IMG/VR virus record: IMGVR_UViG_3300049601_000013
Location: 1-64,000 of that record
Strand: one strand, 5' to 3'
Source: a virus
DNA: 64,000 nucleotides
Under the pieces are notes generated by a model. It did not search any database. It saw nothing but the letters and a program-made list of their open reading frames with translations, and had not been told where the DNA came from. A program made the position numbers and the translations under genes. This document shows, one piece after another, positions 1,362 to 59,170 of this stretch; position 1 is the first letter of the stretch, and every line of letters starts with the position of its first letter.

Positions 1362-1407
1362 GTGGTATGGTCGACTAACGGCGCCGGATGTTGGTCGGCC
1401 ATACCAC
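1362..1407 (+). terminator. hairpin between genes (weak terminator or regulatory structure)
   Basis: GTGGTATGG..CGAC / GTCG..CCATACCAC with an 18-nt loop. No T-tract. Confidence 0.3.
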
Positions 1408-1439
1408 CACGCGAGGCACGATGAACGGACACGACACGC

Positions 1440-2405
1440 ATGTTGATCCTTTGCGACGGAACAGACGGCGCGGGCAAGTCGACGCTCGCCACGCGGCTCA
1501 CGGAGTACCTGGAACGTCACCGCCCCGGCGACACGGTCGAGCTGTGGCACGCGGGCAAGCCGACGACGCACCCCCTCGACGAGTACGTCACGCCCCTGCT
1601 CGGGTACCGGCCCGGACGTGGACACCACATCATCTGCGACCGCTGGCACTGGGGCGAGACCGTCTACCCGGTCATCAAGGGGCGACCCACGGACCTCGAC
1701 CGGCCGACGCACCGGTACACGGAGCTGTTCCTCCAGACGCGCGGCGCGTTGGGCGTGCACGTCTGGCGCGACGTGCACGAGCTGCAGGCGGTCTTCCGCG
1801 ACCGTGGCGAGTTCATCTTGACCGACGCCGAGCTCCACGAGACGCAGAAGCTCTTCACGGTCGCGTACAACGACTCCACGATCACGAAGCGCACGATTCG
1901 TCCCGATGAGGCGGACGTCGTGGAGTACATCGTCGCGGAGGCGGCGCGCGCCGAGCTTAAGGCACGATCCGTCGCGAGCCTCGTGACGTACGTCGGGCCC
2001 CCGCAGGCGGACACGTTGCTCTTGGGCGACGTTCGCTGCCCGGGCAATCACAACCCCGCGGGACCGGCGTTCACGCCGTATCCCGCCACATCGGGCGCGT
2101 TCCTGATGCGCGCTCTCCACGAGTCGGGCATGGCCGAGACCCTCACCGGTGGCCTGGGAATCGCGAACGCGTGCGACGTGGACTCCGTCGCCGACCTCGT
2201 CGCCAGCGTGCGGCCGTACGCGGTCGTCACGCTCGGGGCCAACGCGTGGAAGACGTACACCGGCGCGTTCGGCACGGAGGGTGTCGGCGCCGTTCCTCAC
2301 CCGCAGTACGTTCGCCGGTTCCATCACAAGCACTGCGCGGACTACGGCGCCGCCATCTCGGAGGCGTCATACTACCGAAGGGACATGCGCTCGTGGCGAC
2401 CCTGA
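1440..2405 (+). CDS. fusion protein: dTMP/dNMP-kinase-like P-loop domain plus uracil-DNA-glycosylase-superfamily (family 4-like) domain
   Basis: N-terminus ILCDGTDGAGKST and IICDRWHWGETVYP match thymidylate-kinase motifs. The C-terminal half has LLLGDVRCPG..GPAFTPYPATSGAFL and VPHPQYVRR, resembling UDG family 4 motifs A and B. Confidence 0.7.
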   Translation: MLILCDGTDGAGKSTLATRLTEYLERHRPGDTVELWHAGKPTTHPLDEYVTPLLGYRPGRGHHIICDRWHWGETVYPVIKGRPTDLDRPTHRYTELFLQTRGALGVHVWRDVHELQAVFRDRGEFILTDAELHETQKLFTVAYNDSTITKRTIRPDEADVVEYIVAEAARAELKARSVASLVTYVGPPQADTLLLGDVRCPGNHNPAGPAFTPYPATSGAFLMRALHESGMAETLTGGLGIANACDVDSVADLVASVRPYAVVTLGANAWKTYTGAFGTEGVGAVPHPQYVRRFHHKHCADYGAAISEASYYRRDMRSWRP

Positions 2406-3232
2406 TCACCGCACTCACCGGACCCGCGGCCTACCTGGAGCTGGTGCGGACCGTCGTCAAGAACGGCGTCAAGCGCTCTCCCCGCAACCAGGCGACGCGC
2501 GACCTCGGCATGACCGTCGTCGAGATCGAGCGGCCCCGACGCGCGACTCCCCTGGGCGTCGGCCGTGGACTCAACCGGCACATCATGGCCGCGGAGGCCG
2601 TCCAGCTCGTCGGCGCCTTCTCGGATGCCAACCTCATGCCCGCGACGTTCGAGCCGTACAAGGAGGCCGACGGCCGGTTCTGGGGGGCGTACGGTGACCG
2701 CATCGGCTTCCAGCTGATGGACGTCGTGCGCAAGATCCGGCAGGACCACGCGACGCGGCAGGCCGTCATCGCGCTGTGGAACCCGCACCTGGACAACGTG
2801 CCGTTCAAGAACGACTACCCCTGCACGCTCAACCTGACGTTCTCGACCGATGAGGACGGCTACCTCGACCTTGACGTCATCATGCGCAGCCAGGACGTCT
2901 GGCTCGGCACGCCCTACGACTGGTGCCAGTTCAGCGTGCTGCAGCAGACGGTGGCCACCCTGACCGACCGTGAGTGCGGGCTGTACCGTCACACGACGTT
3001 GTCCACGCACATCTACGAGCGCGACGTCGCCAAGGCGTTGGAGAAGCTCCATGACGAACCCGAGGAGGTCGAGGGTGACTCGTTCCCCGCAGGACTGGCG
3101 CGCCCCGGTGATACCCCTATGGAGACCATCCAGCGGGTCCGGCAGATCCCGTACGTCGACCGCGCGTACATGGTCCACGAGCACTGGTTCCGTGACGCCA
3201 TCCTCAAGGGACGAGGCAACCTGCATGCGTGA
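2393..3232 (+). CDS. thymidylate-synthase-family pyrimidine C5 transferase, predicted dCMP-specific (hydroxymethylase or methylase)
   Basis: TRQAVIALWN, YPCTLNLTF (catalytic Cys 2822-2824) and MRSQDVWLGTPYD align to ThyA RRIIVSAWN, PCH and RSCDVFLGLPFN. Asp (2918-2920) replaces Asn177. GTG 2393 overlaps the upstream stop. Confidence 0.8.
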   Translation: MATLITALTGPAAYLELVRTVVKNGVKRSPRNQATRDLGMTVVEIERPRRATPLGVGRGLNRHIMAAEAVQLVGAFSDANLMPATFEPYKEADGRFWGAYGDRIGFQLMDVVRKIRQDHATRQAVIALWNPHLDNVPFKNDYPCTLNLTFSTDEDGYLDLDVIMRSQDVWLGTPYDWCQFSVLQQTVATLTDRECGLYRHTTLSTHIYERDVAKALEKLHDEPEEVEGDSFPAGLARPGDTPMETIQRVRQIPYVDRAYMVHEHWFRDAILKGRGNLHA

Positions 3233-3695
3233 GCGTCCGTCGTGGGATGAGGTCTGGCTCGCGGTCGCGCAAGATGTCGCCGAGCGCTCCCTGTGCGAGC
3301 GCGACCGCGTCGGGGCCGTCATCGTGGACCACCGCAACCGTCCCGTTGCCGCGGGACACAACAACCCGCCGCGCAACTTCGATCACGGAAACCTCGGCTG
3401 CACCGCGTGGTGTACCCGGGCGGTCGACGGCGGCGGCGATGCGGAGTACTCGACGTGCCCCAGCCTGCACGCGGAGGCGAACGCGCTGATCGTAGGCGAT
3501 GAGTCGGCGCGGCAGGGCGGCACGATCTACGTCACCAGTCACATCTGCTTCACGTGCGCCAAGCTGGTGGCCAACTCGGGACTGGCGCGCGTCGTCGTGG
3601 CGCCGCACTTTCCCGCGCTGCACCGGGCACCTCAGACGGGCTACGTGCTGCTCAACCGATGCGGAGTGGAAGTGGAGATCAAGAATGTGCTGTGA
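3225..3695 (+). CDS. dCMP deaminase (cytidine/deoxycytidylate deaminase fold)
   Basis: Zinc motifs SLHAEANAL and CFTCAKL (HAE...PCxxC type). ATG 3225 overlaps the upstream stop. Confidence 0.85.
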   Translation: MRERPSWDEVWLAVAQDVAERSLCERDRVGAVIVDHRNRPVAAGHNNPPRNFDHGNLGCTAWCTRAVDGGGDAEYSTCPSLHAEANALIVGDESARQGGTIYVTSHICFTCAKLVANSGLARVVVAPHFPALHRAPQTGYVLLNRCGVEVEIKNVL

Positions 3696-3900
3696 CGGCT
3701 GCTGCACCCGACCGGAGCCGGTCGACGAGCGCGAGCTGCGAGCGGTGGTGGAGCGCGCCGTGTCCGACTTCGACTTCCACGTCTATGATGCGGACGTCGT
3801 GGCCACCGTCAACTCGATGGACGCCCGGCTCCAGACGTGGCGTCGCGCGCTGGTCGCCGACGTCACCGACGCGGTCACAAGTGTGGTGAGCACCGCGTGA
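3685..3900 (+). CDS. hypothetical small protein
   Basis: Internal ATG of the 3499..3900 ORF (MCCDGCCTRPEP...). It overlaps neighbouring genes at both ends and its codon bias looks coding. Confidence 0.45.
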   Translation: MCCDGCCTRPEPVDERELRAVVERAVSDFDFHVYDADVVATVNSMDARLQTWRRALVADVTDAVTSVVSTA

Positions 3901-5714
3901 GTCTTGATGACGTGCAGGTCCACCTGGTGGACTCCACCGAGGACGTCGCCGACTTCATGCGGTGGCTTGGTGAGCGGCGACCCGACAATGAGATCGGCTG
4001 CGACACGGAGTCCACGGGACTCGATAAGCAGAAGGACCTCGTGCGAACGGTCCAGTTCGGCGACGCCGTCCACGGCTGGACGATTCCGATCGAAGACTGG
4101 CGCGGCGTCGTCAAGGAGGTGTTCACCAAGTTCACCGGCACGTATGTGGGGGCAAACTGGCCGTTCGATGACGCCATGCTTCGCAACGCGGGCATTGAGC
4201 CGCCGGCACGCGACAAGATTCACGACACGCGCATGATGCACCACCCGCTCGAGTCGACATACTCCACGGCGCTCAAGAACCTCGCGGCGCGCTACGTCGA
4301 CCCGCGCGCCGCGGCGGCGCAGAAGGACCTGGATGACGCCATCAAGATCTACGGGTGGGACGGCATTCCCGTCACCTTCCGGCCCTACTGGGTGTACGCC
4401 GCGCTGGACCCGGTGCTCACCAAGCGGGTGAAGGACGTCATCTACCCGCGGGTGCAGGCCGAGTGTCCGAGGGCGTACGACCTGGAGCTGGCGACGTCGT
4501 GGGTCACCAGCGACGTCGAGCGGTACGGCATTCACATCGACGCCGAGTACGCGGAGCAGGCCTTCGGCAAGTTCGAGCGGTACGTCGCCGACTCCGGTAA
4601 GTGGGTGCAGGACAACTACGGCATTTCCGCCGGCTCCAACCCGGGCGTCGTCAAGGTGCTCAATGAGCTCGGGTACGAGTGGAGTAAGACGACGGCGTCC
4701 GGTGCGGCGGCGCTGGACAAGGAGATCCTCGCCGGCATCGAGCACCCGCTCGCCCAGACGGTGCTGTCGCGTCGCCAGCGGCAGAAGCTCGCTAAGACGT
4801 ACCTCCGGCACTTCATTGACGAGCGTGACGCGTCCGACCTCATTCACTGCTCGATCAACTCGGTCGGCGCGCGGACCGGCCGCATGTCCGTCCAGCGTCC
4901 CGCGCTCCAGACGCTGCCGCGGCGCAGTGAAAAGAACTCCGACGCCATCGTCATTCGCAACTGCATCTCGGCGCGGCCGGGACACACGCTCCTGATGTGC
5001 GACTTCGACCAGATCGAGATGCGGATCCTCGCGTACCTGAGCAAGGACCCTGCCATGCTGGCGGCATTCCTCGCGGAGGGTGACTTCTTCACCAGCATGG
5101 CGTGTCAGCTCTTCCAGCTGGAGAGCATGCTGAAGTCCGACCCACGCCGACAGATCACGAAGAACGGGGGATACGCCAAGATCTACGGCGCGGGCATCGA
5201 CAAGTTCGCCCTCACCGCCGGAGTGTCACCCGCGGACGCCAAGAAGTTCATGACGGACTTCGACGCCATGTTCGCCGAGGTGCCGCGCTTCCAGCGTGAC
5301 GTCATCAACACGGCGATGGGTCGTCGGCAGCAAGAGGGCGTGGCGTACGTCCGCTCGCCACTCACGGGTCGTAAGCACGTCGCGGACCGCAACAAAGAGT
5401 ACGCGCTGACGAACTACCTCATCCAGGGACTAGCCGCCGAGCTGTTCAAGATGAAGGTCCTCGAGGTCGACGCGTCGGGGCTCGGCCAGTGGCTCACCAT
5501 GCTGGTGCACGATGAGGTCGTGCTCGACGTTCCGAATGAGCACGTGGTCGACGCGGTGCACACGCTGGAGCTGATCATGAACGACACCGCCATTCTCGAT
5601 CCCGTTCCCGTGTCCGCCTCCGTCTCCTTTGGTCTACGATGGGGGAGTAAGCAAGACTGGAACGCCGACTGGTGGAGGGAGACCCTTCGTGAGCACGAGC
5701 GCGCGACGGTTTGA
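3897..5714 (+). CDS. polA: DNA polymerase I (family A) with 3'-5' exonuclease domain
   Basis: Exo I motif GCDTESTGLD, motif B RRQITKNGGYAKIYGAG and motif C LVHDEVVLDV. GTG 3897 overlaps the upstream TGA. Confidence 0.9.
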   Translation: MSLDDVQVHLVDSTEDVADFMRWLGERRPDNEIGCDTESTGLDKQKDLVRTVQFGDAVHGWTIPIEDWRGVVKEVFTKFTGTYVGANWPFDDAMLRNAGIEPPARDKIHDTRMMHHPLESTYSTALKNLAARYVDPRAAAAQKDLDDAIKIYGWDGIPVTFRPYWVYAALDPVLTKRVKDVIYPRVQAECPRAYDLELATSWVTSDVERYGIHIDAEYAEQAFGKFERYVADSGKWVQDNYGISAGSNPGVVKVLNELGYEWSKTTASGAAALDKEILAGIEHPLAQTVLSRRQRQKLAKTYLRHFIDERDASDLIHCSINSVGARTGRMSVQRPALQTLPRRSEKNSDAIVIRNCISARPGHTLLMCDFDQIEMRILAYLSKDPAMLAAFLAEGDFFTSMACQLFQLESMLKSDPRRQITKNGGYAKIYGAGIDKFALTAGVSPADAKKFMTDFDAMFAEVPRFQRDVINTAMGRRQQEGVAYVRSPLTGRKHVADRNKEYALTNYLIQGLAAELFKMKVLEVDASGLGQWLTMLVHDEVVLDVPNEHVVDAVHTLELIMNDTAILDPVPVSASVSFGLRWGSKQDWNADWWRETLREHERATV

Positions 5715-6162
5715 GGACGTTCACATCATCGGCGCCGACCCGGGTAAGATGACCGGCCTCGCGCGTCTTCACCACGGTCACCTCACGGTGGTGGCCGCGA
5801 CCTTCGACGAGGTCGAGCCGGTGGTCCGCATGTGGCTCGCAGACGAGGAGCCGGCGGTCGTCGCGGTCGAGCGCTTCGTCATCACGCGCAACACGGCGAA
5901 GAAGACGCAGCAGCTCGACGCGCTGAAGTTGTCCGGCGTCTTGGAGAACCTCGTCGTGCAGGGTGAGCGTCACATCATCGCGTACCAGAACATGTCGGAC
6001 GCGAAGAAGATCGGGCACCCGACGCTTCTCAGGTCACTTCACTGGAAGTCCGTCGGCAAGCACGCGACCCACAAGAACGATGCAGCTGCGCAGGTGATCA
6101 TGATGCTGGCGAGCCGCTACCCGGTTGCCTTCAACCAGCTGGTCACACCTGATATAGTCTGA
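5689..6162 (+). CDS. RuvC-like Holliday junction resolvase
   Basis: VHIIGADPGKMTG, AVERFVI and KNDAAAQVIMM match the RuvC acidic catalytic positions. GTG 5689 overlaps the end of the polymerase gene. Confidence 0.7.
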   Translation: MSTSARRFEDVHIIGADPGKMTGLARLHHGHLTVVAATFDEVEPVVRMWLADEEPAVVAVERFVITRNTAKKTQQLDALKLSGVLENLVVQGERHIIAYQNMSDAKKIGHPTLLRSLHWKSVGKHATHKNDAAAQVIMMLASRYPVAFNQLVTPDIV

Positions 6163-10969: not shown

Positions 10970-12304
10970 ATGAAAATCTTGTATGGAAAGCTCGGTCGTG
11001 CCATGCCGTTGACCTTGGAAAAGTGCGGCACGCTGGGCGGCGACGTGGAGTGCATTCCCGTCGTCAAGGCGCTCGCCCAGCGGCATCCCGAGGACACCTT
11101 CTACCTCTTTGGCCGCAACTCCGGCGAGGTCGCCGAGGAGGCGGGGCTGCCGACGAACGTCGTCAACCCGTGGACCGAGTACGGCTGGCGCGACGAGCTT
11201 CGCGCGTTCATCAAGCGACACGAGATGAACGGCAACTTCACGGTCGCGCAGCAGCGGCAGCTGATCGCATTCATGGACGACATGGTGCGTCCGCTCGTGG
11301 ACGACACGGACGGCATCGTCGGCTGGATCGGACAGCACGGCACCACGAACCAGCCGACGCCCGGCATCACCAAGAAGTCCAGCGGGCAGCTTACGCGGCC
11401 GCAAGACTTCTCGGTGATCTACTGCAGCTTCTTCCTGAACGCGATCAACCGCTTCCGCGACGTCGACCCGTGGACGCGTGAGGAGGTCTGGCTCAACGCG
11501 GACTCGCGCAACTACCTCAAGATGCGCGACCTCGCGTGGCCGCTGGTCGAGCCGGTCCTCACCCAGCGGACGTACCAGCACACGATCCGACACGAGCGCG
11601 GCGACCGGCGCATCGCCGTGAATCACGACTGGCAGCAGCGCGTAGGCGCCCGCGAGCTGGACAAGCACGGGCATCACGTGTGGGAGTCCACCGTGAACTG
11701 CGTCTACTCGCGCCTGGAGATCAACGCACTGATGCCCGACACGCCCTTCGGCGACCTGGTGTCGTACAGCGACGACTTCGACCGGCCGGGCCGGTTCGGC
11801 CTCTTCATCAACGAGGCGCGGACGTACGTCTCCGACGCCACCAAGCGCGTCAACGCGCTGCGCGACTACGCGCTTCCGGTTCGTCCTCACTTCGTGCACG
11901 GCACGTGGTCAAAGCCGTCACAAGAAAGCTTGGGCATCACGATCACTCCCGCACCGTGGAGCGAGTACTACGCCAAGTTGCACAGCGTGAAGTGCACGCT
12001 GACGACGCCGTCCAGTGGGTCCGGCTTCGCGACCACCAAGCCGTGGGAGGCGTTCGCGGCGGGAACCGTCTGCTTCTTCCACCCCCGCTACGATGACCAG
12101 AATCACATTCTAGGCGGCCTTCCGGAGGTTGCCCAGCAGTGGCTACGGGTTAAGCATCCGGGAGACTTCCAGCGCAAGCTGCACGAGGTCTCGAACGACC
12201 GGGGGCTGTGGGAGTGGCTGGTCCGCGAGCAGCGCGAGTACTTCGAGCGCGAGATCGCCGACCTCCGTTACATCCAGCACATCGAGGAGAGGCTCTACGC
12301 ATGA
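10970..12304 (+). CDS. GT-B-fold glycosyltransferase, possibly a DNA (hydroxymethyl-base) glycosyltransferase
   Basis: N-terminal MKILYGKLG...GGDVECIPVVKAL...DTFYLFGRN and C-terminal TKPWEAFAAGTVCFFHPRYD loosely resemble T4 beta-glucosyltransferase (MKIAIINMG..SSETIYLF; RVWETMASDAVMLIDEEFD). It lies within the replication/modification operon. Confidence 0.5.
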   Translation: MKILYGKLGRAMPLTLEKCGTLGGDVECIPVVKALAQRHPEDTFYLFGRNSGEVAEEAGLPTNVVNPWTEYGWRDELRAFIKRHEMNGNFTVAQQRQLIAFMDDMVRPLVDDTDGIVGWIGQHGTTNQPTPGITKKSSGQLTRPQDFSVIYCSFFLNAINRFRDVDPWTREEVWLNADSRNYLKMRDLAWPLVEPVLTQRTYQHTIRHERGDRRIAVNHDWQQRVGARELDKHGHHVWESTVNCVYSRLEINALMPDTPFGDLVSYSDDFDRPGRFGLFINEARTYVSDATKRVNALRDYALPVRPHFVHGTWSKPSQESLGITITPAPWSEYYAKLHSVKCTLTTPSSGSGFATTKPWEAFAAGTVCFFHPRYDDQNHILGGLPEVAQQWLRVKHPGDFQRKLHEVSNDRGLWEWLVREQREYFEREIADLRYIQHIEERLYA

Positions 12305-13419
12305 CGTCGACGCGCGCCGCCATCATCAGCACGACGATCAACCCGATGCCCAACATGGAGTCGTGGCTCACGCACATGTCGCCGCGTGACGTCATGATCA
12401 TCGCGGGTGACCATAAGACCCCTCACGCCGAGATCGAGCGCATGGCGCGACGCGCGCGTGAGGAGTATGACCTCGACGTCACGTACGTTCGACCCGAGGT
12501 GCAGGGCCGCTGGCTGTCATCGGAGGTCCTCCCGTGGAACTGCATCCAGCGGCGTAACATCGCGATCCTCGAGGCGATCGACCGGACTCCCGAGTTCATC
12601 ATCACCATCGATGACGACAACTACCCAATGACCGACGTCACGCACATCGGCATGTCGTGGGTCGACCAGGTCGAGTGGGTTCTCATGCGACCGCACGACG
12701 TCGTCGTGGGCAGCTCCAACACCGGCTGGTTCAACCCCGGCGAGCTGTGCCGTCCCCGGGTGACGCACCGGGGATTCCCGTTCGGTCGTCGTCACGAGGA
12801 GACCGAGCTCGGGCTCAGCTTCAACGCGGGCAACCCCACGGTCGGCGTCTTCGCCGGACTGTGGTACGGCGACCCGGACATCGACGCGATCGAGCGCGTC
12901 GTCTCACAGCCGGACATCAAGATGATCGAGCAGGTCAACGTCACGCTCGCGCCGGGCACGTGGGCGCCCTTCAACTCGCAGTCCACCGCGTACCGCACCG
13001 AGCTGGCGCCGCTTATGATGTGCCTGCCTCACGTGGGTCGGATGGACGACATCTGGGCCAGCTACGTCGCGCGCACTGTCATGGATCACATCGGCTGGCT
13101 CGTCCAGTACGGTTCACCCACCGTCCGCCAGGACCGCAACCCGCACGACCTCTTCCGCGACATCCAGGCGGAGATGCTCGGGTACGAGCACACGCAACAC
13201 CTCTGCGACGTTCTTCGCGGCATTGAACTGCCCGCGACTTCGCACGTGGACGAGCTACTGACGTACGTGACCTCACACCTCACAGCACTTCCGTACGTTC
13301 CGGTTGGAACCCTGAATGCGTATGACGCGTGGAGCGACGACATCATACAGCTCGACGATCGTCACGCCGCCGCACGACTGTTCGACACCTCGAAGATGGG
13401 AAACGACAATGATGAGTGA
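12301..13419 (+). CDS. RGP/GT75-family (reversibly glycosylated polypeptide / UDP-arabinose mutase-like) glycosyltransferase
   Basis: FIITIDDDNYP, THRGFPFGRR, GLWYGDPDIDA and GRMDDIWASY align with plant RGP motifs FTIDDDCFV, RGYPFSLR, GLWLNIPDYDA and GRYDDMWAG. The ATG overlaps the upstream TGA. Confidence 0.7.
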   Translation: MTSTRAAIISTTINPMPNMESWLTHMSPRDVMIIAGDHKTPHAEIERMARRAREEYDLDVTYVRPEVQGRWLSSEVLPWNCIQRRNIAILEAIDRTPEFIITIDDDNYPMTDVTHIGMSWVDQVEWVLMRPHDVVVGSSNTGWFNPGELCRPRVTHRGFPFGRRHEETELGLSFNAGNPTVGVFAGLWYGDPDIDAIERVVSQPDIKMIEQVNVTLAPGTWAPFNSQSTAYRTELAPLMMCLPHVGRMDDIWASYVARTVMDHIGWLVQYGSPTVRQDRNPHDLFRDIQAEMLGYEHTQHLCDVLRGIELPATSHVDELLTYVTSHLTALPYVPVGTLNAYDAWSDDIIQLDDRHAAARLFDTSKMGNDNDE

Positions 13420-13945
13420 TTCGACCGACAACCTCGTCCGCCTGCTGGAGATGCAAGAGCGGCTCCAGCGGGAGGCGTATAAGACCGACCTGCGGGCGCT
13501 GCAGCCCGAGGAGCGCGTCGACTTCATCAAGGACATGGTGCTCGCCGCCACCGATGAGCTGCACGAGGCGCTCGCGGAGACCAGCTGGAAGCCGTGGGCG
13601 TCGACGTACGGCGACGTCCAGAGTGAGGCGTTCTTCAACGAGCTGGTGGACCTGCTACACTTCGTCATGAATCTCATGCTCGTCGCTCGCCAGGACCTGG
13701 AGCCGCGCGAGGTCGCCCAGCTGCTCGTCCAGCGGTACGAGGTCAAGAACGCGAAGAACCTCCAGCGGCAGGTCGAGGGCTACGACGGGAAGACCAACAA
13801 GTGCCCCGCGTGTAAGCGTGCCCTCGATGACGAGGCGGTCCGCTGCCGGCGCGTCACCGTCGACGACTTCGACGGGCCTCACCGGTTCTGGTGTTCACGT
13901 GATGCGGAGTTCTTTCACGCGGACGGCTCTCGCGCGCACTCCTAG
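13409..13945 (+). CDS. all-alpha NTP pyrophosphatase (dimeric dUTPase/dCTPase, MazG-like) with C-terminal zinc ribbon
   Basis: TDELHEALAETSWKPW and ELVDLLHFVMNL are typical of the dUTPase_2/MazG all-alpha family. The C-terminus reads CPACK...CRR..WC. Confidence 0.65.
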   Translation: MMSDSTDNLVRLLEMQERLQREAYKTDLRALQPEERVDFIKDMVLAATDELHEALAETSWKPWASTYGDVQSEAFFNELVDLLHFVMNLMLVARQDLEPREVAQLLVQRYEVKNAKNLQRQVEGYDGKTNKCPACKRALDDEAVRCRRVTVDDFDGPHRFWCSRDAEFFHADGSRAHS

Positions 13946-13994: not shown

Positions 13995-15665
13995 GTGACG
14001 TACAGGGCCGTGGACTGCCAGTCCTTCGCGGGCGGCTTCACGCTGGGAATGGTGCAGGCGGGTTTCGAGCTTACGGGAAAGCGTGAGCAGAAGGGTGGCT
14101 TTGGCACACCCAACTGTGAGGCCAACCGTCACCTGCTCGGCGACGGGTGGCAGGCGGAGGCGTGTTCACCTGAAGAGTGGACTGTACCGACAGCAACTAG
14201 TGATGTACTATTTGCTAATCCCCCGTGTTCGGGATTTTCGGTGATGAGCTCACGTGACTTTCGCGGAGCGGGTTCAGTCATCAACTCGTGCATGTGGGCC
14301 ACGATCGAGTACGCCGCTCGCGTTCGTCCAATTGTAGCCGTCTTCGAGTCGGTCCAGCTGGCCGCGAAAGAGGGTGAGGGACGCGAGCTGATGCGCGCGC
14401 TGCGCGACCGGCTCGAGGAGCTCACCGGCGACAAGTACCACCTGTACCACGTGTTGCACAACGCGTACTCCGTCGGCGGCGCGGGCATGCGGCGCCGGTA
14501 CTTCTGGCTCGCGTCCCGCGTGCCGTTCGGAATCGAGGAGCCGCTCATCCAGCGGTACCCGGTTCTCAACGAGGTCATCGGCGACCTGGTCGAGCAGCCG
14601 CTCGCGTGGGAGGCACGGCCGTACGCGAACCCCGCGCCGTCGTGGTGGGCGGCCACGCGTCGGAACGTCGGCTCGAACGGCGTTCCGGCGCACACGGTGG
14701 ACGGGCACGCGATGACCGAGTCGCCGCTTCACCTGCGCATCAAGGAGCTCATCGAGTGGGCAGACATGCGACCGCGCGAGCCCATACAGCACGCGCTTCG
14801 CCGCTGCTATGAGACGCACGGGTCGCTGCCGCCCTTGTGGAAGCACAACGAGGCGAAGCTGATCTCGCGCGACTTCTTCTCCGGCTTCACGGCGCCCGTC
14901 CGCTGGCAGGGCGACCTGCCGGCGCGCGTCATCACCGGCGGCGCGCTGGGCTCCGTGATTCACCCGACCCTCGACCGCACGATCACGCACCGTGAGACCG
15001 CCCGCGTCATGGGCTTTCCCGATGACTGGCTGATCGACCCGATCCCGCGCGGGGGTCTGGCACCCACGTGGGGCAAGGGCATCACCGTCGATTGCGGCCG
15101 GTGGATCGGCGAGTGGATCAGGGCCGCACTGGACGGCGCGCCCGGCACGTTCGCGGGCGACCTCGTCGGCGAGCGTGAGAGCTCGATCGACTGCACCAAC
15201 TCGTGGCAATCACAGGGCAAGATTGTGATCAAGTCTGGTAAGGTAGTACGGACTGCTGCGAAACGCAAAAACACACAGGGAGGAATCAGCATGTCCGAGG
15301 ACGTCAACGTGGAGAACGCGTCCCAGGCGGAGGCCACCGTCCCCGCCACCAACCGACGTGGCCGGCCACGTCCCGAGGTCACCATCGAACGCGATGCCGT
15401 CGTTCTGAAGGTGCTGGAGGCCGCGCCGTCCACCAAGGTGCAGGTCGCCGTGGAGACCGGCTTCAAGGAGAACGAGGTCTACCTCTCTCTGCACCGGCTG
15501 CAGAAGACCGGCAAGATCAAGCGTGTGCGCGACGGCGGGTCTCACATGTGGGAGGTGACCTCCTCGGAGGACGCTCCCGAGGTCGCCACCGCCGAACCCA
15601 CCGAGGCGACGCCGGCACCCGCGATCGAGCCGCAGGGTCCCGCGCAGCCGGAGTCGTGGATCTAA
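13995..15665 (+). CDS. DNA (cytosine-5) methyltransferase fused to a C-terminal winged-helix domain
   Basis: Motif I CQSFAGGFTLG, motif IV FANPPCSGFS, motif VI FESV and motif VIII GMRRRYFW. The C-terminal LEAAPSTKVQVAVETGFKENEVYLSLHRLQKTGKIKRV looks like a wHTH. Confidence 0.8.
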   Translation: MTYRAVDCQSFAGGFTLGMVQAGFELTGKREQKGGFGTPNCEANRHLLGDGWQAEACSPEEWTVPTATSDVLFANPPCSGFSVMSSRDFRGAGSVINSCMWATIEYAARVRPIVAVFESVQLAAKEGEGRELMRALRDRLEELTGDKYHLYHVLHNAYSVGGAGMRRRYFWLASRVPFGIEEPLIQRYPVLNEVIGDLVEQPLAWEARPYANPAPSWWAATRRNVGSNGVPAHTVDGHAMTESPLHLRIKELIEWADMRPREPIQHALRRCYETHGSLPPLWKHNEAKLISRDFFSGFTAPVRWQGDLPARVITGGALGSVIHPTLDRTITHRETARVMGFPDDWLIDPIPRGGLAPTWGKGITVDCGRWIGEWIRAALDGAPGTFAGDLVGERESSIDCTNSWQSQGKIVIKSGKVVRTAAKRKNTQGGISMSEDVNVENASQAEATVPATNRRGRPRPEVTIERDAVVLKVLEAAPSTKVQVAVETGFKENEVYLSLHRLQKTGKIKRVRDGGSHMWEVTSSEDAPEVATAEPTEATPAPAIEPQGPAQPESWI

Positions 15666-19458: not shown

Positions 19459-20520
19459 CTACCGGAGGCGTGCCGCCTCCTCCCAGACCTCCATCCAGCG
19501 ACTCGCGTGCTGGGCGTATGACAGCTTCTGTGCGGCCACACGTGCCTGCAGTCCACGAAGTCGACGGTACGACTCATCTTCCACGAGTCGCTTCAGCTCG
19601 CGGTACCACTCCTTGGGACGTTCGGCGAGAACGCCAATGCCCGTCTCCTCGTGCAGCTTGACGTACTCGGCGCGCGGTGACATGACGCAGGGTACGCCGA
19701 GGGCGGCGTACTCCAGCGGCTTCAGGTACGACTTCGCCGCGTTGAAGCGCGTGTTCGCCAGCGGCGCGATCCCGACTCCGATGCGCGTTACCGCGTGAGG
19801 CCAGTCGTCGATGTGCAGTGAACCCGTCGCCTCAACGTCATCCTCGCCGACTCCGAACGCGGTGGCCACGTGCTCGCGCGGGCCGGCGAAGCGAAAGGTC
19901 GCCCCGTTGTTCACCAGGCGCGCCACCGCGGGACCCACCTCGGGACCGTCGTCCGGGTGCGTCCACGCCGAGCCACACCAGCCGATCGTGTCGTTGTCCT
20001 CGTGCTCGATCTCCAAGTAGTGGTTCGGCACGAAGTTCGGAATGACGCGGGCGCCGTGAACGCCGCGGTACTTAAGCGCCAGCGCGTCACTGGAGACGAC
20101 GGTGAGCGTCGAGTTGCGCGCGGCGGTCTCCACGTGATGCCACGAGTGATCTTGTGTGAGTGTGTTGCCCGCCGTCTTGGGATGAAGTATCTTCCACGCC
20201 GGGTTGTTCGGGTGAATGGACGAGAGGTCATCGTCGATGTCCATGACGACCGCGACGCCCTGCCGACGCATCACCTCGATCGCCTGCGCCAGAAACTTGT
20301 GTGACACCCGTTGAAGCACGATGACGTCGGCATCCGACGGAAGTGACACACGCTTAACGACGCCGTTGGTGATCTCCGCGTGAAACTGGCCACGAGACTC
20401 CGGCGGCATCACCGTGACATCGTAGCCCTGCTTCTTAAGCTCTTCCGCCGGCCAGATGATGCGAAAGTGACCGCAGCCGGTCGCGTCCGCCGGGTAAGCA
20501 TAGATCTTCATACTTACCAC
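19459..20520 (-). CDS. glycosyltransferase, GT-B (GT1/GT4-like)
   Basis: MKIYAYPADATGCGHFRIIWPAEEL..VVMDIDDD..; the C-terminal half has the typical GT-B nucleotide-sugar-binding layout. An alternative ATG lies at 20511. Confidence 0.7.
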   Translation of the reverse strand: MVSMKIYAYPADATGCGHFRIIWPAEELKKQGYDVTVMPPESRGQFHAEITNGVVKRVSLPSDADVIVLQRVSHKFLAQAIEVMRRQGVAVVMDIDDDLSSIHPNNPAWKILHPKTAGNTLTQDHSWHHVETAARNSTLTVVSSDALALKYRGVHGARVIPNFVPNHYLEIEHEDNDTIGWCGSAWTHPDDGPEVGPAVARLVNNGATFRFAGPREHVATAFGVGEDDVEATGSLHIDDWPHAVTRIGVGIAPLANTRFNAAKSYLKPLEYAALGVPCVMSPRAEYVKLHEETGIGVLAERPKEWYRELKRLVEDESYRRLRGLQARVAAQKLSYAQHASRWMEVWEEAARLR

Positions 20521-20735
20521 GTGCTCGCGTCAAAACCATGCACGAGATCCCGAATAAACAACTCTGCCGCAGCCTCCGTCGCAAATGAACCCGAAGTGGC
20601 AACACGTGCGCTGCCACCGGAAACATTCGCGATTTCTACGTTCCAGTTGGATGGACCATCTTGGATTGCGTAGATGGAAAAGACTTGCGCCAAGTTGACG
20701 TAGCTGCCGTCAATGATTTTGATGAAGCCATTCAC
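20514..20735 (-). CDS. hypothetical small protein
   Basis: GTG 20735 forms a GTGA overlap with the upstream GT2 stop. The 73-aa product has no recognisable motif. Confidence 0.4.
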   Translation of the reverse strand: MNGFIKIIDGSYVNLAQVFSIYAIQDGPSNWNVEIANVSGGSARVATSGSFATEAAAELFIRDLVHGFDASTW

Positions 20736-21313
20736 CAGCGATCTCCTCGTCCCGAAGTATTTCCCGTACCGTGATCCCACACCCATGTGCGACACGGCGA
20801 GTGCACGATCTTGCCGCCGGCGTAGTGCACCGCGAGCCAGCAGCCCCAATCCTCGTTGGGGTGACCTGCGGCGTCCGGATGAGGCCTAAAGCCGTGAACG
20901 TCGCCTAGTGCTTGCGTTCGTGCGACGACCGTCACCGGGATGTAGTTGCTGCGCTCCAGGTGTACCGGGTCGAACGGCTTCCCGAACATTCCCAAGGGAT
21001 CCGTGCCGTTGATGACGTCGAACCACGGATACACGACGTCAGCTCGACTCTCACGAGCCTCAGCCATGCACGTCTCAATGTGATTGGGGTAGAGGTAGTC
21101 GTCATCATCCAGGAACGCGACGTACTTCGTCTCCACCATGTTAAGACCGCGATTACGCGTCACTGCGGCGCCCTCGTGGTGTACGTCCGTCACCACGATG
21201 ATGTCGGCAGGCATTACAGACTGCGTTAGCAGTGAGCCCAATGCCCTCTTCAGAAGTCGAGCTCGCGTGGGAATGTGCGGAATGACCACTGTCACATCTT
21301 CGAAGTCAGTCAC
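20732..21313 (-). CDS. glycosyltransferase family 2 (GT-A)
   Basis: VVIPHIPTR...LLTQS...AVTRNRGL...VAFLDDDDYLYPNH (DxD). It ends HGTGNTSGRGDRW. Confidence 0.8.
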   Translation of the reverse strand: MTDFEDVTVVIPHIPTRARLLKRALGSLLTQSVMPADIIVVTDVHHEGAAVTRNRGLNMVETKYVAFLDDDDYLYPNHIETCMAEARESRADVVYPWFDVINGTDPLGMFGKPFDPVHLERSNYIPVTVVARTQALGDVHGFRPHPDAAGHPNEDWGCWLAVHYAGGKIVHSPCRTWVWDHGTGNTSGRGDRW

Positions 21314-21861
21314 CAGCGATCCGCCCTTCCACTGGTGTTGCCGGTGCCGTGATGCCAGCGCCAGGTACGTTGAGGAAGATGCACGATCTTTGCACCCAGC
21401 TCAATGCAGCGCAACGTGAAATCCCAGTCCTCACCACCGCCTGCATCTCGGAACCCGACCTCTTGAGCAAGCTTCGTTCGCACCATGGTGGTAACCGTGG
21501 TGTGATGCGGATCATTGACGTCGTATGTCTTTCCGAAATGCTGAGGAAACGGGTCGAATCCATTGACGACTTCGAACCATGAAAAGACGTAGTCCGCACC
21601 GGTCGCGGCGGCCATGCTGATCAGCCTTGCAACGTGCTCAGGCATGAACTCATCATCATCATCAAGGAACGCGACCCAGTCCGTCTGAATCGCGTTCAGT
21701 GCGCGCTGCCGGTTGCCGGCCGCCCCGAGCCGTTCGTGGTCGACCGAGATGCTCAGCTGCCGGACCGGGTAGGTCTGACTCAGTACGGATCCAACGGCCC
21801 GCTGGAGGAGGTCTGCCCGCACTGGAATGCTCGGTATGGCGACGCCGACGGTGTCAGGCAT
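21310..21861 (-). CDS. glycosyltransferase family 2 (GT-A), paralog of 20732..21313
   Basis: VAIPSIPVR...VLSQT...AGNRQRAL...VAFLDDDDEFMPEH. It ends HGTGNTSGRADRW. ATG 21861 overlaps the upstream TGA. Confidence 0.8.
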   Translation of the reverse strand: MPDTVGVAIPSIPVRADLLQRAVGSVLSQTYPVRQLSISVDHERLGAAGNRQRALNAIQTDWVAFLDDDDEFMPEHVARLISMAAATGADYVFSWFEVVNGFDPFPQHFGKTYDVNDPHHTTVTTMVRTKLAQEVGFRDAGGGEDWDFTLRCIELGAKIVHLPQRTWRWHHGTGNTSGRADRW

Positions 21862-22441
21862 GCGTGGCACCCCAGATCTGATATGTGTAGTACGCGCTGG
21901 GTCCGGTCGGCGTGAAGAGCATATGATTGCTTGGCGCCCAACCCGCCTGCTCCAGGAGGTCCAGAACGCCGTGCTCATCCCAGCCCCAGTAGTGCTCAGG
22001 ATTATTAGCGTCCTGCTCGTCTCGAGGGGTCGACAGTATCAGCTGACTCGCGTGATTGCGAATCTTCACCAGCAGCTCGTGAGGCTTATCGATGTGCTCA
22101 AGCGTCTCTGACAGGACGAAGAGGTCGACGTAGCCAATGAGGTCGATGGTGCGCTCGATCGCGCCGGTGAACGCGTACTCATCGTTGTGCACGTAGTCGC
22201 CCAAGATGACCAGGCGTGTGCCCTCGATGTTACGCGCGATGGTCGCATCGCCGCACGACAGGTCCGCGACGATGCGCCGCGCACTCGGCGCCGTCCACGC
22301 GTGGATGCAGTCCAGCGTCGCATTCACACGCTGGATGTGATCCTCCCAGCGGGTGTGATCGTACTGCTTGGCATACACGGTGTGAAGTTCTTCCGGCGTG
22401 TACGCCGGTCGCAGTCGGCGAATGCTCACCGTGTTACGCAC
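21854..22441 (-). CDS. class I SAM-dependent methyltransferase
   Basis: IVADLSCGDATIA (motif I-like) and DLFVLSETLEHIDKP (motif-IV-region pattern of small-molecule/O-methyltransferases). Confidence 0.65.
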   Translation of the reverse strand: MRNTVSIRRLRPAYTPEELHTVYAKQYDHTRWEDHIQRVNATLDCIHAWTAPSARRIVADLSCGDATIARNIEGTRLVILGDYVHNDEYAFTGAIERTIDLIGYVDLFVLSETLEHIDKPHELLVKIRNHASQLILSTPRDEQDANNPEHYWGWDEHGVLDLLEQAGWAPSNHMLFTPTGPSAYYTYQIWGATHA

Positions 22442-23112
22442 CTCGCAACGATCTTATCAGCATCCAACTGAAGCTGCTCTTCGAGGTATTGTCGAAAGAG
22501 TCGGCCGTCGTTCTCGTACATCTCTCCGGAGTTGACCTCCGCGTACCGCTCATCCCAGGCGGCCTTGCCGGCGACGGGATGCATGTGCTCAATGATGACG
22601 TCGTTGATGTACGCCAGCCGCTGGAGCCGCATGCCCAGCGCCTTCCAGAAGTCATCGAGGTAGAGGTGGATCATGCCGGGCGGCACCATGTATCCGAGCG
22701 TCTCGATGATGCACGACGACATCCAGACGGCGGTCGGCAGGTTGACCCCCTGGATGAGGTCGTTGCCGTAGGCGAGGCCGACGCCGCCGAGCGTCGCGAT
22801 GCTCGCGGCGAGGCGCTGATCCCACCCGTACGTTCGCGGACGGTGATCGTCGCCCATGAAGCCGATGATGTCGTAGTTGTCCGCGTAGAACGTCGCGAAG
22901 TCGTTGAGCGTTGGGCCGAGGCGCTTACGCGAAGTGACCGCGAAGCGAACCCAGTTGGGCGCGTCGACGAGCGCCGCGCGGTAAGACTCCAACGTCTCAT
23001 CGTCATCATCGACGACGATCAAGAGCTCCGCGTAAGATCGCGTGTCACGCCACGACTGGATCAAGTTGGTGATGTTGTCCGGTCGTCCACGAGACGGAAC
23101 GATGACGAGCAT
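22426..23112 (-). CDS. GT-A-like glycosyltransferase
   Basis: MLVIVPSRGRP...LLIVVDDDDE...GFMGDDH. ATG 23112 follows GGGAGGTAGAG. Confidence 0.55.
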   Translation of the reverse strand: MLVIVPSRGRPDNITNLIQSWRDTRSYAELLIVVDDDDETLESYRAALVDAPNWVRFAVTSRKRLGPTLNDFATFYADNYDIIGFMGDDHRPRTYGWDQRLAASIATLGGVGLAYGNDLIQGVNLPTAVWMSSCIIETLGYMVPPGMIHLYLDDFWKALGMRLQRLAYINDVIIEHMHPVAGKAAWDERYAEVNSGEMYENDGRLFRQYLEEQLQLDADKIVARCVTR

Positions 23113-23146
23113 CTCTACCTCCCAGTGAGAGATCTCCACGGTCGCG

Positions 23147-50455: not shown

Positions 50456-51040
50456 CTACCTCCGAGCGAGTACGACTTGGTAACGGCCTGCGGTCTCGTG
50501 CCGAACGACGTTCCAGCCGCCGCTCTCAATCATGGCGCGGTAGCCGGGCATGTCCCACGCCCACGCGTGCACCGCGTCATGTGACGCCTCAGTCTCATCC
50601 ACGGGCGATGATGCGATCAAGACGCGGACGCCCGCGTTCCGGACGGCGCGAACCAGGTCGTGAGGCCGAGCCACGTGCTCGAGAACCTCGAGCATCGTGG
50701 TGACGGTCCCAAGCTCTGGCCGCTCGACGGTGAAGTCTTGCAGGCGCACGTCCACCCCGCGCTCCGCCGCTCCCACGACGTTGGCCGGGCAGAGGTCGTA
50801 ACCCCACGCGCGTTCCACGAACGGCGCCACGAGGGTCAAGAACCCGCCGTCGCCCGCTCCCAGGTCCGACAGCGTCGGACGCGCGTACCAGTTCTCAGCC
50901 GCGCGTACGCAGTCGAGCGCGAGGTCCATGCGCGGCCGATGGTGCGTCTGCTCCAGGTGCGGGGCGCGCTCGCGGTCGCGGTGAAACTCGGCGGTGCTGA
51001 CGTGCGGCACCGTGTTCTCCTCGAAGAGTCGCCACTCCAT
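50456..51040 (-). CDS. class I SAM-dependent methyltransferase-like protein
   Basis: LSDLGAGDGGFL (motif I) and VTTMLEVLEHVARP. ATG 51040 overlaps the upstream TGA. Confidence 0.6.
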   Translation of the reverse strand: MEWRLFEENTVPHVSTAEFHRDRERAPHLEQTHHRPRMDLALDCVRAAENWYARPTLSDLGAGDGGFLTLVAPFVERAWGYDLCPANVVGAAERGVDVRLQDFTVERPELGTVTTMLEVLEHVARPHDLVRAVRNAGVRVLIASSPVDETEASHDAVHAWAWDMPGYRAMIESGGWNVVRHETAGRYQVVLARR

Positions 51041-58059: not shown

Positions 58060-58551
58060 CTAACCTTGTGCGGTGATGTCGGCGGTGGTCAGGATCCCGA
58101 TGCGAAGCGCGATGGCCACGGCGTGTGCCGCGTTGCGCGCTCCCAGCGCCGCGTACGCGTTGCCCAGGTACGTCTTGACGGTCTGCGGTGAGATGCCGAG
58201 CATCGCCCCGATCTCCGCCGACTGGTGCCCCATGGCGACGCCAATGAGCATGCGCTTCTCGCGATCGGTGAGCACGTAAGAGCACGCGCGCTGCCGGCGG
58301 GTGGGCGGTCGCTTGGCCGCGTACGGCAGCTGCAAGATCACGGGACGAAGTCCGTCGACCATGCGTCGGATGTCGGTGTGACTCAGCTCCAAGTGACCCT
58401 CCACCGACGCGCGAGCCAGCGCCTGAAAGAGGCGCTGGCCCAGTCCGTCCAGCGTCGACTGGCGCGTCGCACGTGGTGCGTCAGCGGTCGCCGCCGTCGA
58501 CGGTCGTGACCTGTGCCGTGGTACCTCGTTGTGTGCGTTACTGGGCAGCAC
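58060..58551 (-). CDS. LuxR/GerE-type HTH regulator
   Basis: C-terminal LTDREKRMLIGVAMGHQSAEIGAMLGISPQTVKTYLGNAYAALG. GTG 58551 follows GAGGAGGAACGAC. Confidence 0.65.
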   Translation of the reverse strand: MLPSNAHNEVPRHRSRPSTAATADAPRATRQSTLDGLGQRLFQALARASVEGHLELSHTDIRRMVDGLRPVILQLPYAAKRPPTRRQRACSYVLTDREKRMLIGVAMGHQSAEIGAMLGISPQTVKTYLGNAYAALGARNAAHAVAIALRIGILTTADITAQG

Positions 58552-59170
58552 GTCGTTCCTCCTCGACCGTAAGAGCCGCGCGAACGCGCACCAGCTCATC
58601 GTCCTTCGCCCGACCGTTCTCCACACGCCACAGCGCGCTCACCGTCAGTTCACAGCGTCGTGCCAGCTCGCCACGTGAAAGGCCGAGCGCCTCCCTGCGG
58701 ACGCGCTCGCCGGCCGCCTGGTCTACCTGCCGCGCATCGGCGACGGGTGTCTCAGCGGGCGACTCGGTCGACGCTACGGCCGGTTCGGCGACCACAGGCT
58801 CGGCGGCCGGTTCGGCGGCCGTGGCCGAGGTGACGTCGGTCGGCTGGGCGGCCGTGTCGTTGTCATCACGTGCTCCTCGTCGCGTCGCGTGACGCCGTTC
58901 GGTCGCGGACAGCGGCCGCACCTGGGGGTCCACATCGTCATCCGTCAGAACGACGTAGTAGGCATCCTCACTGGCGGCGTGCCGATGAAAGGCGCTCATG
59001 TCGAGCACGACCTTCACCATGCGCTGGTGCGACCGCTCGGCGGTGTAGTGCCAGACGCCCGTGACGCGGCGCCAGCGGCCTAGGGCGTCATCCCACACGA
59101 GGTCATTCTGCTCGAGCTGCGTCACATGACGCGAGATCGAGTTGCCCACCGGTTCACGTGAGTTGTTCAC
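58538..59170 (-). CDS. XRE/Cro-type HTH protein with long N-terminal domain
   Basis: C-terminal RVRREALGLSRGELARRCELTVSALWRVENGR. Confidence 0.55.
   Translation of the reverse strand: MNNSREPVGNSISRHVTQLEQNDLVWDDALGRWRRVTGVWHYTAERSHQRMVKVVLDMSAFHRHAASEDAYYVVLTDDDVDPQVRPLSATERRHATRRGARDDNDTAAQPTDVTSATAAEPAAEPVVAEPAVASTESPAETPVADARQVDQAAGERVRREALGLSRGELARRCELTVSALWRVENGRAKDDELVRVRAALTVEEERRAAQ

Follow-up and report, generated by a model that had tools for sequence, protein, structure and literature searches.

Bacteriophage T4 replaces the cytosine of its DNA with 5-hydroxymethylcytosine by means of a pathway comprising gp56, gp42, gp1 and cd, followed by a glycosyltransferase. The gene considered here lies within a 64,000-nucleotide stretch of viral DNA (positions 1 to 64,000 of the IMG/VR record IMGVR_UViG_3300049601_000013; hereafter the window), in the open reading frame (ORF) 2393–3232, and its product is predicted to carry out the same reaction as T4 gp42, a deoxycytidine monophosphate (dCMP) hydroxymethylase (EC 2.1.2.8). 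In this family of enzymes, preference for uracil is set by Asn177 of E. coli ThyA, and N177D and N229D mutants prefer dCMP to deoxyuridine monophosphate (dUMP) (PMC8670742 and PMC13326640, citing Hardy & Nalivaika 1992 and Liu & Santi 1992). Conversely, D179N in T4 dCMP hydroxymethylase leaves negligible product and much weaker dCMP binding (PMC6400193), and Asp186 is the switch residue of MilA, the CMP 5-hydroxymethylase of Streptomyces rimofaciens (PMC5175136). The water that adds to the exocyclic methylene is activated by an acidic side chain (Asp or Glu) located three positions ahead of the catalytic Cys; thymidylate synthases carry Leu there, and T4 D145N is inactive (PMC6400193, PMC13326640). 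Phage Xp12, which has 5-methylcytosine DNA, carries a thymidylate synthase homologue shown to make 5-methyl-dC (bioRxiv 10.1101/2024.12.05.627091; accession taken from PMC7653180). In phage metaviromes, the MetaGPA studies found that thymidylate synthase, dCMP deaminase, NTP pyrophosphohydrolase and DNA_pol_A together characterise cytosine-modified contigs (PMC8670742), and that 70% of modified contigs, against 6.1% of unmodified ones, carried a deaminase no more than 3 kb from a thymidylate synthase homologue (bioRxiv 10.1101/2024.12.05.627091).

The protein encoded by ORF 2393–3232 is a member of the thymidylate synthase family. It matched PF00303 with an E value of 1.2e-22 (80.8 bits; cut-off 24.3), and an AlphaFold2 model built from an alignment reached a predicted local distance difference test score of 95.5. 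MilA (PDB 5b6d/5jnh) was the closest solved structure to this model in Foldseek, matching it over the full length, C-terminal helices included (TM-score 0.81, E 1e-19), with thymidylate synthases at about 0.65. There were 396 PDB matches at E <= 0.001, and the 50 listed all belonged to the thymidylate synthase/pyrimidine hydroxymethylase superfamily. MilA was also the best match of the family profile among PDB sequences (E 7e-30). Reading begins at a GTG codon at 2393, preceded by GAAGGGA, and ends at a TGA stop at 3230–3232; the same 279-residue product was called independently on two contigs that carry this DNA, one from JGI (92,314 bp) and one from Logan (92,125 bp).

Equivalences with E. 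coli ThyA, whose numbering was confirmed, were read from hmmalign output in which ThyA and other reference enzymes had been aligned to a profile built on 88 members of the family. The pairs, phage residue first, are Arg31 and Arg21, Glu68 and Glu58, Phe86 and Trp80, Tyr89 and Trp83, Tyr100 and Tyr94, Arg122-Gln123 and Arg126-Arg127, Asp141 and Leu143, Cys144 and Cys146, Thr145 and His147, Arg165-Ser166 and Arg166-Ser167, Asp168 and Asp169, Asp176 and Asn177, and His206/Tyr208 and His207/Tyr209. The superfamily catalytic set (Cys144 after Pro, Glu68, Arg165, Tyr100 and His206/Tyr208) is present and invariant in relatives. The original prediction, aligned by eye, had placed an Asp at the position of Asn177 and a Cys-Thr pair at the nucleophile, and both placements were borne out by HMMER, profile and structure-based alignments. 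Read directly off the sequence, TGC at 2822–2824 encodes Cys144, ACG at 2825–2827 encodes Thr145 and GAC at 2918–2920 encodes Asp176; Cys144-Thr145 lies within NDYPCTLN, aligned with Cys146-His147 of ThyA, and Asp176 lies within MRSQDVWLGTPYDW. The peptide MRSQDVWLGTPYD occurs in the product as had been quoted, and the model and alignments, a check that had been proposed at the outset, put Asp176 on Asn177 and not elsewhere. The codons of the other key residues are at 2594–2596 (Glu68), 2756–2758 (Arg122), 2813–2815 (Asp141), 2888–2890 (Ser166), 2894–2896 (Asp168), 3008–3010 (His206) and 3014–3016 (Tyr208).

Searches against PDB sequences gave the same picture. With phmmer against all PDB sequences, 'pct' aligned over 'pch' and 'rsqdvwlgtpyd' over 'rsadvflgvpfn' of several thymidylate synthases, and HMMER placed 'lgtpyd' over 'lgvpfn' in the enzymes of L. 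casei, E. faecalis and Elizabethkingia. The second-ranked PDB sequence match was the L. casei N229D mutant (1njc/1njd), 1njc being N229D with dCMP. Pro-Cys-Thr and Asp176 were invariant in 120 metagenomic homologues (43–99% identity), and Asp141, Cys144, Thr145, Ser166, Asp168 and Asp176 were invariant in 80 IMG/VR viral loci that were found with the family profile on contigs of up to ~130 kb. Asp176 and Cys144-Thr145 are thus kept across about 200 relatives, 201 in the case of Asp176, and this invariance indicates that the active-site residues reflect neither chance nor sequencing error.

On these residues, a cytosine nucleotide is very probably the substrate, as the original prediction held; its premises concerning T4 Asp179 and ThyA N177D are upheld by the literature (PMC6400193, PMC8670742, PMC13326640), and its reading is supported by the alignments, by published work on the switch residue and by the Asp/Asn pattern among tested enzymes. 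In our reference table, function-tested enzymes of the Asp type all act on cytosine nucleotides and tested enzymes of the Asn type act on dUMP. Across the same table the residue after the Cys covaries with the Asn/Asp position. Asp is paired with Cys-Thr in T4 gp42, RB69 gp48 and MilA, and also in the uncharacterised phage homologues of DSL-LC01, AXL3, PW916, GMA2, Phendrix, HTVC200P, nattely and MW202510; Asn is paired with Cys-Asn in the SPO1 and SP10 dUMP hydroxymethylases and the PaMx11 and LuckyBarnes homologues, and with Cys-His in ThyA. The phage enzyme departs from canonical ThyA (EC 2.1.1.45) at Asn177, which is Asp176, and at the dry-site residues for hydride transfer Leu143, Trp83 and His147, which are Asp141, Tyr89 and Thr145.

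An enzyme that uses dUMP, whether an ordinary thymidylate synthase or a dUMP hydroxymethylase, and that is fed by the adjacent dCMP deaminase would fit the annotation of relatives as thymidylate synthase or deoxyuridylate hydroxymethyltransferase, the position of the dUMP hydroxymethylase SPO1 gp29 as the nearest characterised sequence, and the adjoining deaminase gene, which would provide dUMP. We nevertheless consider it very unlikely. Asp176 is invariant, whereas SPO1, SP10, the PaMx11 homologue and ThyA have Asn together with Cys-Asn or Cys-His, so that the combination typical of SPO1 gp29 (Asn with Cys-Asn) is replaced here by Asp176 with Cys-Thr. The N-to-D exchange switches ThyA to dCMP, and the D-to-N exchange abolishes the activity of T4 dCMP hydroxymethylase (PMC8670742, PMC6400193). 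Furthermore, all eight NCBIfam thymidylate synthase equivalog models scored below their cut-offs (32–60 bits against 108–576).

With cytosine as the probable substrate, the enzyme is likely to be a folate-dependent dCMP hydroxymethylase with 5-hydroxymethyl-dCMP as its product. The original prediction had maintained that methyl and hydroxymethyl products could not be told apart from sequence, which was too cautious, as published signatures discriminate between them and favour hydroxymethyl. The product was narrowed in this way because an acidic residue stands three positions before the Cys, Asp169 is retained, and the enzyme clusters with hydroxymethylases rather than with ThyA or the Xp12 enzyme. 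The acidic residue, Asp141 in NDYPC, aligns with T4 Asp145 and is invariant, and Tyr89 stands where ThyA has Trp83. A rough neighbour-joining tree placed the phage protein together with MilA and the dUMP hydroxymethylases of SPO1, SP10 and PaMx11, and paired the Xp12 enzyme with E. coli ThyA. BLASTP scores were 103 bits against SPO1 gp29 and 92 bits against SP10 (both full length), 56 bits against Xp12 (core only), 55 bits against MilA, 51 bits against ThyA, 50 bits against RB69 gp48 and 22 bits against T4 gp42. The sugar also appears to be read as deoxyribose. The ribo-CMP preference of MilA depends on Ala176 and Lys133, the counterparts of which in deoxy-specific enzymes are Ser and Arg (PMC5175136); the phage enzyme carries Ser166 and Arg122 at these positions (Ser167 and Arg126 of ThyA) and lacks the Ala and Lys of the MilA/BcmA type.

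A methylated product must also be weighed. Like the Xp12 enzyme, the phage protein could be a dCMP methyltransferase that carries the complete thymidylate synthase reaction through to 5-methyl-dCMP, with hydride from folate and release of dihydrofolate; the adjacent deaminase would then turn part of the 5-methyl-dC nucleotide pool into thymidine nucleotides, which would explain why no separate thymidylate synthase was seen. Asp at the Asn177 position is compatible with this alternative as well, Xp12 also pairs its thymidylate synthase homologue with a deaminase (in a different gene order), and the window holds one thymidylate-synthase-family gene only, no second one having been found in it. 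Neither PF00303 nor ThyX appeared in the precomputed Pfam lists for the flanks; the window itself was not searched directly for ThyX. In addition, of the seven metavirome homologues of the Asp type that were tested, five yielded 5-methyl-dCMP, and the deaminases encoded in cis with them showed a preference for 5-modified cytosine (bioRxiv 10.1101/2024.12.05.627091). Against these points, the position held by Leu in ThyA and by Asn in Xp12 is an invariant Asp141 in this family, Tyr takes the place of Trp83, the tree sets the phage protein with hydroxymethylases and the Xp12 enzyme with ThyA, and the C-terminal part resembles MilA and not the tail of thymidylate synthase. None of the features expected of an Xp12-type enzyme, namely a non-acidic residue at 143, clustering with ThyA and a dihydrofolate reductase (DHFR) partner, was found for the phage enzyme and the window. 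For DHFR this is weak negative evidence: a six-frame search of the window by phmmer gave no homologue of the Xp12 protein, and Pfam scans of ten ORFs of 130–222 residues in the window were negative for a DHFR domain. The gp56-like dCTPase and the possible beta-glucosyltransferase-like protein described below suit a hydroxymethyl route, and on balance we regard methylation as an unlikely activity of this enzyme.

A 5-hydroxyl product is harder still to credit. A flavin-dependent 5-hydroxy-dCMP synthase of the kind represented by RB69 gp48 and DLP3 gp80 would create a 5-hydroxyl to which a sugar could be attached directly, perhaps a furanose made by the GT75-family mutase encoded nearby. Enzymes of the RB69 gp48 type share the Asp at 177 and the acidic residue at 143, an NDP-sugar pyranose/furanose mutase is encoded in the window, the DNA sugars of RB69 and DLP3 are furanoses, and RL38J1 has a sugar mutase (PMC13326640). 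However, D169N is the mark of these synthases (PMC13326640), and Asp168, the equivalent of ThyA Asp169, is kept in all 81 sequences, that is, in the phage enzyme and in 80 of 80 related loci; the signature of a flavin-type 5-hydroxy-dCMP synthase is therefore absent. RB69 gp48 is also distant from the phage protein by BLASTP. Such an activity is extremely unlikely here.

By analogy with T4 dCMP hydroxymethylase and MilA, we infer that dCMP hydroxymethylation would proceed as follows. Cys144 would attack C6 of dCMP, and Asp176 would read and protonate the N3/N4 face of the cytosine. Glu68 would aid the opening of 5,10-methylene-tetrahydrofolate, with transfer of the one-carbon unit to C5. No hydride would then pass from the folate; instead, a water activated by Asp141 would add to the exocyclic methylene, giving 5-hydroxymethyl-dCMP and tetrahydrofolate. 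Specificity for the 2'-deoxy nucleotide would come from Ser166, Arg122, His206 and Tyr208. The neighbouring genes (Table 1) suggest the steps that may follow. The product would be converted to the diphosphate by the translationally coupled upstream kinase and to the triphosphate by host enzymes, and the gp56-like pyrophosphohydrolase would clear dCTP and return dCMP. The overlapping dCMP deaminase would give dUMP for host thymidylate synthesis or, alternatively, would act on the modified nucleotide. Hydroxymethyl-dCTP would be incorporated by the phage DNA polymerase I, and the hydroxymethyl group in DNA may then be glycosylated. Given an active site that appears to be built for cytosine and for hydroxymethylation, the phage most likely replaces cytosine with 5-hydroxymethylcytosine, as T4 does.

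Several points weigh against this interpretation. The T4-type water-holding signature Ser94-x-Tyr96 is not preserved, since the phage enzyme has Gly98-Ala99-Tyr100 and keeps the Tyr alone; the Ser/Thr of this signature is also missing in the SPO1 and SP10 dUMP hydroxymethylases, which have Ala-Pro-Tyr. BLASTP showed marginal similarity to T4 gp42, with E values from 0.009 (across 79 residues) to 0.26, and the assignment therefore depends on a few signature positions and the rough tree. In the literature, the link between position 143 and the product is a correlation and not a proven rule. About 12 kb of the 92-kb genome lies outside the inspected sequence. Some phage deaminases act on the modified nucleotide (bioRxiv 10.1101/2024.12.05.627091), and were this one to do so, part of the pool might become hydroxymethyl-dU nucleotides; the final base in DNA is therefore uncertain. 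Finally, the C5-cytosine DNA methyltransferase-like protein encoded at 13995–15665 would be idle if all cytosines were replaced. This gene had no homologue in the 80 related loci and lies outside the conserved module, and thus looks like a recent accessory gene. About 190 residues at the C terminus of its product extend beyond the Pfam methylase match.

Table 1. Features of the window relevant to nucleotide and DNA modification
Feature	Coordinates	Strand	Length (aa)	Basis
P-loop nucleotide kinase (thymidylate kinase/YorR-like) with C-terminal domain like the uracil-DNA glycosylase (UDG) superfamily	1440..2405	+	321	YorR profile match, Foldseek, PF03167
Thymidylate-synthase-family gene, predicted dCMP hydroxymethylase	2393..3232	+	279	PF00303, AlphaFold2, Foldseek, residue table
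dCMP deaminase family gene	3225..3695	+	156	PF00383 E 3.9e-15, PF14437; ATG overlaps upstream stop
DNA polymerase I (family A) with 3'-5' exonuclease	3897..5714	+	605	Precomputed PF01612, PF00476; 79/80 loci
Candidate DNA glycosyltransferase	10970..12304	+	444	Weak similarity to C-terminal half of T4 beta-glucosyltransferase
GT75-family NDP-sugar pyranose/furanose mutase	12301..13419	+	372	phmmer vs MtdL 7xpr/7yua E 6e-33; PF03214 RGP
All-alpha NTP pyrophosphohydrolase, T4 gp56 dCTPase/dUTPase homologue	13409..13945	+		PF08761 dUTPase_2 E 7.8e-11; phrog_18650 E 3.7e-35
C5-cytosine DNA methyltransferase-like gene	13995..15665	+	556	PF00145 E 3.8e-18; TIGR00675 39.6 bits, below cut-off

The hydroxymethylase gene is embedded in a compact cluster. 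It shares 13 nucleotides with the upstream kinase gene (stop at 2403–2405) and 8 nucleotides with the downstream deaminase gene (ATGCGTGA at 3225–3232), and because of both overlaps the kinase, thymidylate-synthase-like and deaminase genes look translationally coupled. The order kinase, thymidylate-synthase-like gene, dCMP deaminase and DNA polymerase I was kept in 78–80 of the 80 viral loci, and it is also conserved in the metagenome-assembled Actinomycetia phage DSL-LC01, the nearest relative (38.7% protein identity, identical gene order). The polymerase gene is followed by genes for a RuvC-like protein, an SNF2 helicase, a PD-(D/E)XK nuclease, a Sak4-like ATPase and an SSB-like protein. A megablast search of positions 1400–5800 against 50,697 phage records gave no near-identical phage, and hence no cultured close relative is present among those records. 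The window has 64% G+C, real genes in it are marked by a strong third-position GC bias, and no tRNA genes were found in its 64 kb. The source is an uncultured, high-GC and probably actinobacterial phage. Elsewhere in the window, a LuxR/GerE-type regulator and an HTH_31 protein, which overlap in the raw ORF list, are encoded at 58060–59170 on the minus strand among small uncharacterised genes.

The kinase gene lies immediately upstream of the thymidylate-synthase-like gene in 79 of the 80 related loci. Its family profile matched YorR (PDB 2axp) over residues 2–165 (E 2.7e-14), the Foldseek matches were thymidylate kinases, and by analogy with T4 gp1 the kinase would phosphorylate a modified deoxynucleoside monophosphate. 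Taken alone, its C-terminal domain matched the PF03167 UDG family at 26.9 bits (cut-off 24.3). The family profile found no glycosylase among PDB sequences and Foldseek with the whole protein returned the kinase half only, so the UDG-like assignment comes from the Pfam match. Motifs of this domain are GDVR, PAFxPY, NACD and HPQY, with Gly196, Arg199, Asn243 and His287 invariant, and full-length structural matches of the fusion include gp315 of Bacillus phage G. The deaminase, present in 78 of the 80 related loci, matched the PDB dCMP deaminases 2hvv, 2w4l and T4 1vq2. Further downstream, the pyrophosphohydrolase aligned with nearly the whole of T4 gp56 (BLASTP E 1e-8, 25% identity) and would remove dCTP and supply dCMP; the PRA-PH pyrophosphohydrolase of the AXL3 type showed no detectable relation to it.

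Two genes just upstream of the pyrophosphohydrolase gene may be related to sugar modification. The 444-residue protein gave no match in Pfam, PHROG or NCBIfam and nothing significant against PDB, where T4 beta-glucosyltransferase (1bgt) topped the matches of its family profile at a non-significant E value of 0.5. In hhalign, residues 351–426 aligned with residues 263–332 of T4 beta-glucosyltransferase at probabilities of 63% and 39% (E 7e-5 and 3e-4). The protein is possibly a distant relative of the T4 enzyme, although this is not established, and such a relative would need a hydroxyl acceptor. Its C-terminal part carries SGwATaKPWEaF, its 632 metagenomic homologues are all unannotated, and the gene is conserved beside the mutase gene, the two being paired in at least 14 related loci. 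The mutase belongs to the MtdL/Hyg20/plant RGP family (GT75; for MtdL function, see PMC9937993) and sits inside the replication and nucleotide-metabolism module. Speculatively, this widespread lineage may attach a furanose to the hydroxymethylcytosine of its DNA, which would be an undescribed hypermodification, with the Mn-dependent GT75 mutase providing the donor, the 444-residue protein as the transferase and the kinase–UDG-like protein as a new bifunctional partner of the hydroxymethylase; we hold this to be possible but doubtful.

Other sugar- and methyl-related genes were observed in the window. At 19459–23139 (minus strand), a GT-B glycosyltransferase, a small Methyltransf_23-like ORF and a GT2-like glycosyltransferase are encoded beside tail genes, and a dTDP-glucose 4,6-dehydratase-like gene runs from 63072 to beyond 64000 (minus strand), across the end of the window. 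The tail-side glycosyltransferases and the dehydratase-like gene may serve glycosylation of the virion or cell envelope rather than DNA modification. Two paralogous S-adenosylmethionine-dependent methyltransferase-like ORFs of 194–195 residues (BLASTP E 1e-15) lie on the minus strand at 50456–51040 and 21854–22441. They are not orthologous to the AXL3-type Methyltransf_23, which precedes the pyrophosphohydrolase–kinase–hydroxymethylase cluster in AXL3, PW916 and MW202510.

If the proposed activity is correct, a large group of uncultured high-GC phages, with hundreds of metagenomic relatives and genomes of 50–130 kb, would modify cytosine by the strategy of T4, using an independently diverged hydroxymethylase that is misannotated as 'thymidylate synthase' or 'dUMP hydroxymethyltransferase'. 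Apart from the correction of annotations, this would be of use in predicting how far these phages resist restriction and CRISPR, help in reading biases of metagenomic sequencing, and offer an enzyme source for 5-hydroxymethylcytosine chemistry. The enzyme is an uncharacterised representative, indeed one of a large clade, of an already known kind, because earlier publications set out the Asp/Asn rule and the acidic-residue rule as well as the association with deaminases, and all three have been applied to IMG/VR contigs. That Asp in place of Asn177 denotes a cytosine substrate is a textbook idea that has been applied systematically to metaviromes, and our finding confirms existing knowledge; homologues of the Asp type beside a dCMP deaminase have already been catalogued in phage metaviromes (PMC8670742; bioRxiv 10.1101/2024.12.05.627091). 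Somewhat novel are the GT75 mutase with its possible beta-glucosyltransferase-like companion and the kinase–UDG-like fusion. In the literature searched, we found no individual characterisation of the clade with this fusion partner and nothing specific on hydroxymethylcytosine in actinophages.

The genes at 3280–4098 of the Pseudoxanthomonas phage PW916 and at 3995–4804 of the Stenotrophomonas phage AXL3 are annotated 'deoxyuridylate hydroxymethyltransferase' and 'thymidylate synthase'; these are more likely dCMP hydroxymethylases, because they have Asp at Asn177, Cys-Thr, and Asp three residues before the Cys. In Brevibacterium phage LuckyBarnes (3492–6656), a 517-residue homologue of the uracil type (Asn with Cys-Asn) precedes a pair of genes that bear the annotation 'beta-glucosyl-HMC-alpha-glucosyltransferase'. 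That name points to hydroxymethylcytosine, but the residues suggest that the acceptor is hydroxymethyluracil.

Among characterised enzymes, the closest by sequence are the dUMP hydroxymethylases SPO1 gp29 and SP10, which share with the phage enzyme the Asp three residues before the Cys and the tree cluster; they differ in Asn at the Asn177 position, in Cys-Asn, in acting on dUMP and in a longer C-terminal extension (~380 residues in total). The Xp12 dCMP methyltransferase resembles the phage enzyme in its Asp at the Asn177 position and its adjoining dCMP deaminase gene, but it has Asn at 143, Pro after the Cys and a retained Trp80 and falls beside E. coli ThyA in the tree; in Xp12, a DHFR gene also lies just past the deaminase gene. 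MilA, at ~24–29% identity, has in common with the phage enzyme the Asp at the Asn177 position, the Asp three before the Cys, Cys-Thr and the Glu/His/Tyr catalytic set. It differs in the Ala176 and Lys133 that favour ribo-CMP (PMC5175136), against Ser166 and Arg122 here, and in its role, which lies in antibiotic biosynthesis and not in DNA precursors.

The MetaGPA homologues of the Asp type likewise have Asp at Asn177 and co-occur with PF00303, PF00383/PF14437, an NTP pyrophosphohydrolase and DNA_pol_A, the pyrophosphohydrolase being of the gp56/dUTPase_2 type here and of the PRA-PH type there. With T4 gp42 the comparison is one of predicted chemistry and pathway more than of sequence. Full-length orthology was not supported by BLASTP, T4 dCMP hydroxymethylase has 246 residues and a very short tail, and the phage enzyme ends in a C-terminal helical region of ~55 residues that has no counterpart in thymidylate synthase. 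On sequence, the phage enzyme falls outside the gp42 family, on a branch of the superfamily that also holds dUMP hydroxymethylases. The active-site residues nevertheless correspond (T4 residue first: Asp179 and Asp176, Asp145 and Asp141, Asp171 and Asp168, Ser169 and Ser166, with Cys-Thr in both), and the logic of the pathway is alike, with homologues or analogues of gp56, gp1 and cd encoded near the phage gene.

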